From: Escherichia coli
GTDB taxonomy: Bacteria > Pseudomonadota > Gammaproteobacteria > Enterobacterales > Enterobacteriaceae
Reading direction: 5' to 3' (one strand)
Length of the DNA stretch: 64,000 nt
Assembly (NCBI RefSeq): GCF_030384885.1
Contig: NZ_CP128613.1
Position 1 is the first letter of the stretch; each line of letters begins with the position of its first letter. The notes beneath the pieces were generated by a model. The model was given only the letters and a program-made list of their open reading frames with translations. It had not been told where the DNA came from and made no database searches. Positions 12,226 to 14,182 of the stretch are shown piece after piece. The position numbers were made by a program, and so were the translations under genes.

Positions 12226-13647
12226 TTACAATAACCATTCCACAGGCAATATCGACGCCAGTCTGACCATAACCCGCTTCCAGAAACTGGTAGCGGGTTC
12301 TTTTTTGAGAACAATTTCTTTCTTTGCATGACGATCAACCCAGTTGATCCGCCCCCACCTGTCCAGACGGAGCTGCCAGGCCGCATCATACTGGCTCTGA
12401 ATAAAGCGTTTATCAATTAACTGTGCCAGCGTTTCGCTCTCTATCACGAACCCCATTTCAGTATTGAGCAATGTCGAACGTGGATCGAAATTGAAAGAGC
12501 CAATAAACACCGTTTTACCATCGATGCTAAAGGTTTTAGCATGCAGGCTGGCACCGGAATTACCGGTTATGCCGCGATCGTGTAACGTACTACTTTGTTC
12601 ACGCGTCGGCTTGAGTTCATATAATTCCACGCCGTAGCGGAGCAATTTTTTGCGCCAGCGCGCGTATCCGGCATGGACGACAGCAACATCGTTAGCGGCA
12701 AGAGAATTGGTTAGGATCGCAATCTTTACCCCTTTTCTCACCATCCGTAAGAGTTGCGCCACACCTGCGCGTGTCGGTACAAAATAGGAAGAGATAATAT
12801 CGATGCGTTCACTGGGTGAGCCCATGATATCGAACAGGCGTTGCGGTAACAGTGAATGCCGTTTTGCCTTGCCTTCCCCTTTCGCCGGATCATCACTTAA
12901 TAAACGTGTTTTCGCCCAGATAAGCGGCAACGTTCCATCAACCAGATGATTTATAAACGGGCTGGATTCCATTTTGCGTAAATAACGATGCGTCATGGCA
13001 TCGTCATGCCAGGAGGCGGGTAACTCGATGCGATCCGCCATTTCACCTTCCGGGACATCCAGCACCTGCTGTAAGGGTGAAACCGATTTACAATACCAGT
13101 AGCGGGCGAAATCATCGGCAACGTCCTCTACAACTGGTCCTATTGCCATGACATCTAAATCCGAAAAAAGTGGCTCTTCCCCTGCACCAAAATAGGCATC
13201 ACCAATATTTCGTCCCCCTACCAGCGTCACCACGCCATCGACAGTGAAACTTTTATTGTGCATACGGCGATTGAGACGGGAAAAGTCGGTGATATAACCA
13301 AGCGGACGTAGCAAGCGAAACGAGAAAGGATTAAAAAGCCGGACTTCAATGCGGGGATGACTGTCAAGCAAGCGTAAAATGTCGTCAAGTCCGGGTGTAT
13401 TGTTGTCGTCCAGCAACAAACGGACGCGAACGCCACGCTTTGCTGCGGCTAACAGGGCGGAAAACAGTAACCGACCCGACATATCGTCCTGCCAGATGTA
13501 ATACTGAACATCCAGCGTATGCTCTGCCATTTCGGCCAGACGATACCGGGCGGCAAACGCATCCAGACTTTTCTCCAGAGGGAAAAGGCCACACTGACCG
13601 GGATGTTGCGAACACAGTGGCAGCACCGCGCTCGCCAGCCGGGGCAA
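12226..13647 (-). CDS. clsC: Cardiolipin synthase C, phospholipase D family (473 aa)
   Basis: ORF 12226-13716; a TTG start at 13647 sits 9 nt after an AAGGAG Shine-Dalgarno and gives 473 aa; two HKD-type motifs (HNKSF..., HAKTF...) in the translation. Confidence 0.8.
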   Translation of the reverse strand: MPRLASAVLPLCSQHPGQCGLFPLEKSLDAFAARYRLAEMAEHTLDVQYYIWQDDMSGRLLFSALLAAAKRGVRVRLLLDDNNTPGLDDILRLLDSHPRIEVRLFNPFSFRLLRPLGYITDFSRLNRRMHNKSFTVDGVVTLVGGRNIGDAYFGAGEEPLFSDLDVMAIGPVVEDVADDFARYWYCKSVSPLQQVLDVPEGEMADRIELPASWHDDAMTHRYLRKMESSPFINHLVDGTLPLIWAKTRLLSDDPAKGEGKAKRHSLLPQRLFDIMGSPSERIDIISSYFVPTRAGVAQLLRMVRKGVKIAILTNSLAANDVAVVHAGYARWRKKLLRYGVELYELKPTREQSSTLHDRGITGNSGASLHAKTFSIDGKTVFIGSFNFDPRSTLLNTEMGFVIESETLAQLIDKRFIQSQYDAAWQLRLDRWGRINWVDRHAKKEIVLKKEPATSFWKRVMVRLASILPVEWLL

Positions 13648-13648
13648 A

Positions 13649-14182
13649 TCATTCATCTCCTTGTTGGGTAAGGAGTCTTTCGTAGAGGTGGGCGTTTTCT
13701 TCATCATAACAGACAAAGTATACCTGTTCGGGTAAAGCGTGACGGGTAATAAATTCTGAAACGGTTTTTACTGCGATTTCAGCCGCTGCCGCACGAGGGT
13801 AACCATAAACCCCAGTACTAATTGCAGGAAAAGCCACTGACGTATAGCTGTTTGCCGCCACCAGTCGTAGGCTATTGAGATAGGCATCCTGCAAAAGCTG
13901 GTCTTCGTTTTGTTCACCACCACGCCAGACTGGCCCGACGGTGTGCACTACGGCTTTCGCGGGAAGATCGCCTGCAAGCGTAATAACGGCATGCCCCGTA
14001 GGGCAATCGCCCTGCTGCTGCCTGACTTTTAAACAGGCATCCAGCAGGGCCGGACCCGCTGCGCGATGAATGGCCCCATCGACGCCGCCGCCTCCCATTA
14101 ATGACGGATTAGCCGCATTCACAATCACATCAACGGCCAGTTTGGTAATATCACCCTGCACAACATGAATACGCGTTTTCAT
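13649..14182 (-). CDS. ymdB: O-acetyl-ADP-ribose deacetylase, macro-domain protein (177 aa)
   Basis: 177-aa ORF with macro-domain motifs ([23 protein letters not shown]); directly upstream of clsC. Confidence 0.9.

Follow-up and report, generated by a model that had tools for sequence, protein, structure and literature searches.

Termination-reinitiation at closely spaced or overlapping stop and start codons is a general coupling mechanism of bacterial operons. ClsC of Escherichia coli is an unusual cardiolipin synthase that uses PE and PG as its substrates. Among its described relatives are the ClsO and ClsC-like lipoprotein cardiolipin synthases (PMC12846801), with which it shares a homologous PLD-type enzyme body; the non-enteric relatives carry a lipobox and a signal peptide, whereas the enterobacterial ClsC has no signal peptide and the 5' end of its gene is embedded in ymdB. 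A second point of comparison is provided by the dual-start genes mapped by tetracycline ribosome profiling (TetRP) and Ribo-RET (PMC4909307; bioRxiv 10.1101/520783). Like these genes, clsC has two in-frame start candidates, 57-60 nt apart; unlike them, its upstream site is located within the coding frame of another gene. Existing annotations also differ over where clsC begins. The curated E. coli K-12 record (b1046, NP_415564.2, 473 aa) leaves 1 nt between the ymdB stop and the first codon of the gene, and so uses the same TTG and the same coordinates considered here, while the PGAP start lies 60 nt further upstream.

We examined this locus within a 64,000-nt stretch of E. coli contig NZ_CP128613.1, referred to below as the window. 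Both clsC and ymdB are encoded on its minus strand, an orientation left unstated in an earlier reading of this DNA made from the letters alone (the sequence-only reading). Positions 12226-14182 are 100% identical to E. coli strain 2013C-4282, and the ymdB-clsC locus is present in 5,421 of 5,426 complete E. coli genomes. The genes are arranged as csgBAC-ymdA-ymdB-clsC, and mdoC/opgC lies convergent to them at the 3' side of clsC. The assignment of the gene product as the PLD-type cardiolipin synthase ClsC follows from two matches to PF13091 and from its being the b1046 ortholog adjoining ymdB and opgC. A work cited in the reference list of PMC7492729 refers to a ymdAB-clsC operon, and a search inside ymdB for a sigma70-like promoter found none. 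The features of interest are collected in Table 1.

Table 1. Coordinates of the ymdB-clsC junction and of the candidate clsC starts in the window.
Feature	Position	Strand	Remarks
clsC coding region	12226-13647 from TTG; 12226-13707 from upstream ATG	-	Two PLDc_2 domains
ymdB	13649-14182	-	Macrodomain O-acetyl-ADP-ribose deacetylase; upstream gene of the operon
Junction TTG	13645-13647	-	Curated K-12 clsC start, 473 aa; Leu21 in the 493-aa form
ymdB stop TGA	13649-13651	-	Ends 1 nt before the TTG (single base 13648 between)
ATG abutting the SD (-3 ATG)	13654-13656	-	476 aa (MNDLPRL); made by ymdB codons GAT-GAA; absent in C. amalonaticus
AAGGAG, SD-like hexamer	13657-13662	-	9 nt 5' of the TTG; encoded by ymdB Gln174-Gly175-Asp176
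Predicted hairpin	13657-13675	-	CUCCUU (13675-13670), loop ACCCAAC, AAGGAG (13662-13657); in MFE and centroid structures
ymdB Leu171 codon CTT	13670-13672	-	Precedes Thr172; CTG, TTG, CTA or TTA would make a clsC-frame stop
Second ATG of the ATGATG pair	13702-13704	-	492 aa (MKKTPTS); TetRP '-57' candidate; lost where Asp160 is GAC
Upstream ATG	13705-13707	-	493 aa (MMKK...); 59 nt inside ymdB; PGAP start; conserved site
Upstream TTG	13714-13716	-	496 aa (MSVMMKK); first start codon of the open frame; not conserved

The minus strand across the junction reads ...CAAGGAGATGAATGATTTGCCCCGG... and is shared by two frames, that of ymdB as ACC CAA CAA GGA GAT GAA TGA (TQQGDE and stop, the end of a YmdB C-terminus of ...LLTQQGDE) and that of clsC as AAC AAG GAG ATG AAT GAT TTG CCC CGG (NKEMNDLPR). 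The span 13647..12226 comprises 474 codons with the stop and encodes 473 aa, a length obtained from the TTG only, as the alternative in-frame starts give 476, 492, 493 or 496 aa. In this respect the sequence-only reading was correct, and three further details of it were reproduced on the minus strand: AAGGAG (13662-13657) precedes the TTG by 9 nt, the in-frame ATG at 13654-13656 abuts that hexamer with a spacer of 0, and the ymdB stop (TGA 13651-13649) ends 1 nt before the start. The ymdB stop thus lies within a few nucleotides of the curated clsC start on one transcript (TGA-t-TTG), with the SD inside the upstream gene, an arrangement that fits the proposed coupled translation of ymdB and clsC. 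However, the same reading took the 473-aa annotation as evidence and left unweighed the ATG pair 57-60 nt upstream, which contains the PGAP start.

This TTG is an in-frame codon, relatives begin to align at residues 1-4 of the 473-aa ClsC, and AAGGAG supplies anti-SD complementarity 9 nt 5' of the codon. By a crude calculation of our own, TTG 13647 has the best combination of SD and spacing among the candidates (duplex of -8.5 kcal/mol, gap of 9 nt). The same AAGGAG serves ATG 13656 with a gap of 0 nt, and the best SD for ATG 13707 and ATG 13704 is only CAGGUA (-3.8 kcal/mol, gaps of 14 and 17 nt, respectively). Opening the U-rich RNA around the upstream ATGs costs less energy (8.3 vs 11.7 kcal/mol). 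The remaining candidate, the TTG at 13714-13716, requires Phe156 to be TTT, and several Citrobacter have TTC. It should be noted that the AAGGAG-spacer-TTG motif is by itself not beyond chance: the window contains 15 AAGGAG hexamers against 19.9 expected, and a single AAGGAG-N5-10-TTG against 2.5 expected. The junction motif is meaningful because it is in frame and located at a gene junction.

The disagreement between 473 and 493 aa is one of method and not of sequence, since PGAP gives the 493-aa protein both in strain 2013C-4282, which matches the window exactly at 12226-14182, and in a derivative of MG1655. This longer call (e.g. WP_001353293.1; start ATG 13707-13705, 59-nt overlap with ymdB) was found in all eight E. 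coli RefSeq records checked, namely that of 2013C-4282, six others, and that of the MG1655 derivative; it shares the ORF and stop codon of the shorter one and ignores the SD-led junction TTG. No NCBIfam model specific to ClsC that would explain the PGAP start scored above its cut-off, and no experimental basis for the curated TTG start was found in the literature examined. In the TetRP study, ymdC is listed among the alternative-start candidates with an ATG at -57 (PMC4909307 Table S2), with reads of 0/30.1/16.1 at that codon vs 0/0/5.7 at the annotated TTG. Because ymdB elongation overlaps the site, the signal at -57 was put by its authors in the class 'not conclusive (5' ORF)' (PMC4909307). 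An entry for clsC/ymdC was absent from TRAINSPOTTER, the Salmonella riboproteogenomics study, and the Giess 2017 supplements, and no start-mapping data for clsC beyond TetRP were found in the accessible literature. The feature is therefore already known, as the TTG start is curated and the alternative is in the RefSeq and TetRP tables, and an ambiguity of this kind is common and routine.

The reading that we tentatively favor, at a little under an even chance, is that E. coli clsC has dual in-frame initiation sites on the ymdA-ymdB-clsC transcript, with the signals for both located inside ymdB. The first site would be an ancestral, widely conserved AUG (13707-13705, followed directly by a second AUG at 13704-13702) that is +1 to the ymdB codons for Tyr159-Asp160, lying in U-rich, weakly structured RNA with no usable SD and yielding a product of 493/492 aa. 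The second would be a younger junction UUG (13647-13645), with AAGGAG 9 nt upstream and a product of 473 aa, at which ribosomes terminating on ymdB would reinitiate by translational coupling, a step made possible by the position of the UUG just 1 nt past the ymdB stop. We infer both the firing of the two sites in E. coli and the reinitiation mechanism at the UUG. Arguing against dual starts, the upstream AUG would need to initiate inside a translated ORF with the SD out of range, the SD is not conserved beyond E. coli and E. fergusonii, and AAGGAG-N5-10-TTG is no rarer than chance. The 20 extra residues of the long ClsC are hydrophilic and poorly conserved, so the 493- and 473-aa forms are probably functionally equivalent.

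Two simpler readings, both of which we consider unlikely and to the same degree, would retain only one of these sites. The first of them holds that the TTG is the sole or strongly dominant start in E. coli and that in Escherichia the upstream frame and its ATGs are an evolutionary remnant still to decay. Besides having the strongest SD and spacing and a position 1 nt after the ymdB stop, the TTG draws support from its counterparts in relatives, which we compared in a sample of 80 genome loci and four additional junctions. With a ClsC that is only 82% identical, E. fergusonii still retains AAGGAG-ATG-ag-TGA-t-TTG. The junction reads GAGGAG-TGA-a-TTG in C. amalonaticus and TGA-g-TTG in a Citrobacter-like lineage (P0017), and five genomes of the C. 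freundii group have an ATG at position 1, either as TGA-t-ATG or, in C. werkmanii, as an ATGA, which is the classical overlap of coupled genes. The codon at the TTG position is thus TTG or ATG in E. coli, E. fergusonii, and Citrobacter, but TTA in E. albertii, and in Salmonella and the majority of the other genera it is no start codon at all; Dryocola, Cedecea, and Buttiauxella have a stop-N-GTG junction. Where a leucine codon occupies this position, TTG rather than the common CTG was retained in 4 lineages. In both C. werkmanii and the P0017 lineage, the upstream clsC frame is closed by stops, and therefore only a junction start is workable in these organisms. An upstream ATG with no usable SD inside a translated ORF also fits a TTG-only gene. 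Several findings weigh against this reading however. In E. albertii, TTA replaces the TTG and AAGGCG replaces the AAGGAG, and its clsC is nevertheless intact; the context of the upstream ATG is the same as in Salmonella, which must use that ATG; TetRP reads are fewer at the TTG; and the upstream clsC frame is open in every Escherichia examined. As for the SD itself, AAGGAG shows no variation among the sampled E. coli or in E. fergusonii and is not conserved outside of these two, and the Gly175 codon within it varies among GGA, GGC, and GGT in other genera. Among the E. coli variants sampled (six of 1,649 variant genomes were inspected), the TTG, the SD, and the ATGs are all invariant, a diversity too low to inform. 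Thus, the central claim of the sequence-only reading, that clsC uses the TTG, stands in part: the best SD and the junction starts of relatives speak for use of this codon, while the conserved upstream ATG pair, the E. albertii TTA, and the TetRP reads speak against it.

The converse reading gives the sole or dominant role to an upstream ATG (13707-13705 or 13704-13702), with the TTG simply encoding Leu21 and AAGGAG arising coincidentally from the Gln-Gly-Asp codons. This would agree with a start that is conserved across the Enterobacteriaceae. Salmonella and at least nine other genera in the sample are without a junction start, and the upstream site is the only one available to them; a non-start codon (Thr, Lys, Ser, or similar) follows the ymdB stop in Salmonella, Leclercia, Enterobacter, Pseudescherichia, and Superficieibacter, and likewise in Kosakonia, Atlantibacter, Siccibacter, and Intestinirhabdus, the last judged from protein sequence only. 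In Salmonella, the ATGATG pair is the only in-frame ATG/GTG/TTG, and a stretch of 34 nt around it matches E. coli without a difference. In Phytobacter, clsC no longer adjoins the intact ymdB but is still preceded by the decayed remains of a ymdB 3' end, with the upstream-start Met as the opening codon of its ORF. Bare conservation of this Met was rejected as evidence, because in ~84% of cases YmdB Tyr-Asp-Glu alone would yield one or more ATGs by chance; for the same reason, a wobble-specific test was used. Because clsC is read in the +1 frame of ymdB, the ymdB wobble positions are the second positions of clsC codons. In 25 of 25 genomes, ymdB codon 159 (Tyr/Phe) is TAT or TTT; neither TAC nor TTC occurs, and an ATG or TTG is thereby preserved for clsC. 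Across the same genomes the wobbles of Cys158, Asp160, and Tyr167 vary freely. Leu171 is CTT or CTC in 17 of the 18 genomes with Leu-Thr, and the lone CTG, in the P0017 lineage, creates its TGA stop. With synonymous codons resampled and each YmdB protein sequence held fixed, two clsC-frame stops were observed in the overlap of the 25 genomes vs 16.1 expected, compared to 158 observed vs 181 expected in the rest of ymdB as a control; these genomes are phylogenetically related, and such naive counts make the events look more numerous and independent than they are. Taken across the whole family, this pattern of codon usage argues that a second frame and its start codon are kept beyond the coding needs of YmdB, with the signal coming mainly from genera that have no junction start and with the divergence within Escherichia being too small to reveal any continued maintenance of the upstream start there.

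In addition to the codon 159 wobble selection, the avoidance of stops, and the lack of any other option in Salmonella, an upstream-only start is consistent with TetRP and PGAP both pointing upstream, with a junction motif that is not beyond chance, and with an SD that differs between genera. It accounts poorly for the relatives that have closed the upstream frame and must use a near-identical junction, for the retention of TTG over CTG in four lineages and its replacement by ATG in the C. freundii group, and for the presence in E. coli of a strong SD at a workable distance.

The two remaining possibilities fare far worse. Initiation at the ATG at 13656-13654 (MNDLPRL, 476 aa) is highly improbable: it is an in-frame AUG at the junction, the sole remaining junction start codon in E. 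albertii, and the codon picked by the gene caller in the P0017 lineage, but it has no SD spacer, is missing from C. amalonaticus, and is a by-product of the ymdB GAT-GAA. The sequence-only reading had likewise judged the -3 ATG an unlikely start, and the comparative data favor position 1 over this codon, with the C. freundii group placing its ATG at position 1. A YmdB-ClsC fusion produced by a prfB-like +1 frameshift at the ymdB stop can practically be dismissed, as what speaks for it is geometry only (AAGGAG-AU-GAA UGA U, an SD 2 nt before GAA-UGA, and a clsC frame +1 to ymdB), while GAA cannot re-pair in the +1 frame (AAU), unlike what a prfB-like site would call for, and the site is not conserved, with GCC-TGA in Salmonella and GCA-TAA in Leclercia. 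Database proteins of 651-653 aa with Macro and PLD domains were considered as natural YmdB-ClsC fusions and rejected, as they reflect mid-gene ymdB frameshifts with a broken Macro domain.

Returning to the dual-start reading, the comparison of relatives suggests how two sites could have come to coexist. Most likely, the ancestral enterobacterial clsC started inside ymdB. The junction start most likely arose later, in the Escherichia-Citrobacter lineage, and became an ATG in the C. freundii group, and its presence most likely freed two Citrobacter lineages from the need for the upstream frame. Both sites are intact in E. coli, whose junction SD is better than that of the P0017 lineage, which must use the junction.

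The junction may also bear upon the effect of ymdB on ClsC output. In the mRNA, CUCCUU sits 7 nt upstream of AAGGAG and is predicted to pair with it, occluding the SD. An SD-sequestering hairpin opened by ribosomes translating ymdB is put forward here as a hypothesis only, because its local z is -0.69, statistically indistinguishable from shuffled sequence across 61 nt. Clones that carry ymdB have been found to yield more ClsC 'by an unknown mechanism' (PMC8027125; also PMC4966929), and the title of a 2024 paper states that the YmdB product is not required for ClsC substrate specificity. The native clsC start signals, for both sites, are all located within the last ~80 nt of ymdB, and the signals inside ymdB may therefore explain in cis the higher ClsC output of ymdB clones. 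A broader proposal, which we regard as possible but on balance somewhat doubtful, is that the requirement for ymdB in cis for good ClsC production is purely translational, that constructs beginning at the TTG lack the necessary signals, and that the overlap, from which two ClsC proteoforms would arise, is selected across the Enterobacteriaceae. If this is true, the effect of ymdB upon ClsC would be a cis translational effect, and both expression constructs and deletion alleles would be affected, as deletion of ymdB would remove the clsC start signals. The conflicting database lengths of 473 and 493 aa would likewise have to reckon with start signals that lie in ymdB.

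Folding prediction places the clsC Shine-Dalgarno (SD) sequence in one arm of a small mRNA hairpin, which would be predicted to mask it; the + strand of the same sequence has a terminator-like score. A common E. coli SNP falls within the loop of this hairpin; it is synonymous in YmdB (Thr172) but causes a Pro-to-Leu substitution in the extended form of ClsC, i.e. the clsC frame as read from the upstream ATG inside ymdB. Of the 1,649 genomes differing from the window 60-mer we sampled six, and four of these carry the SNP.

Predicted hairpin over the clsC SD, and SNP in its loop
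Feature	Window position	Strand	Basis
6-bp hairpin CUCCUU-ACCCAAC-AAGGAG	13657-13675	-	mRNA folding prediction
Common E. coli SNP ACC->ACT, in hairpin loop	13667	-	alignment A1

Junctions in other species were also inspected. At the E. albertii NBRC 107761 locus (L004 750-800) the junction reads AAGGCG ATG AAT GAT TTA, such that the SD and the TTG are both changed in this one genome examined, and clsC is otherwise intact. The ymdB genes of Dryocola, Cedecea, and Buttiauxella (loci L014, L017, and L019) are three codons shorter than that of E. coli and six shorter than those of most other genera, and 1 nt after the stop codon of each lies a GTG that is in frame with clsC (TAA-c-GTG, TGA-c-GTG, and TAA-a-GTG, respectively). 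The three genera constitute a second lineage having a stop-N-start junction. At the Phytobacter massiliensis locus (L018 2380-2500), ~110 nt lie between an intact ymdB and clsC, with a decayed duplicate of a ymdB 3' end (QIYLSCYDNKNARRIDLAFR*) located directly 5' of clsC; the opening residue of this clsC ORF is the ancestral MTIK Met.

Four database proteins of 651-653 aa, two E. coli-like (P0001 and P0002) and two Salmonella-like (P0010 and P0011), join an N-terminal YmdB part to ClsC. In these sequences the clsC frame is open over ~50-115 codons of ymdB, and all four are mid-gene frameshifts of ymdB that continue in the clsC frame. Since P0010 has 28 member sequences, an isolated sequencing error does not account for every joined form: at least one is a real or recurrent allele. 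Among the ymdB-clsC matches in the E. coli collection, five fall on plasmid-labelled records (e.g. NZ_CP041417.1, 306 kb); these may be misassigned replicons or large pieces of chromosome.

Among 38 non-enteric ClsC homologs (L043-L082), 22 have a lipobox (e.g. LLAGC) upstream of the position that aligns with the first residue of E. coli ClsC, and several others have hydrophobic N-terminal anchors. After the lipobox come a conserved LPxLxxR motif and then ...DTA(H)TRLG. Such lipobox-bearing N-termini agree with the recent description of ClsO as an outer-membrane lipoprotein (PMC12846801). In the N-terminal region of Siccibacter ClsC, LPSLPSDTAHNTRLG is still readable. From these sequence comparisons, the enterobacterial ClsC seems to be a derived form in which the signal peptide was lost.
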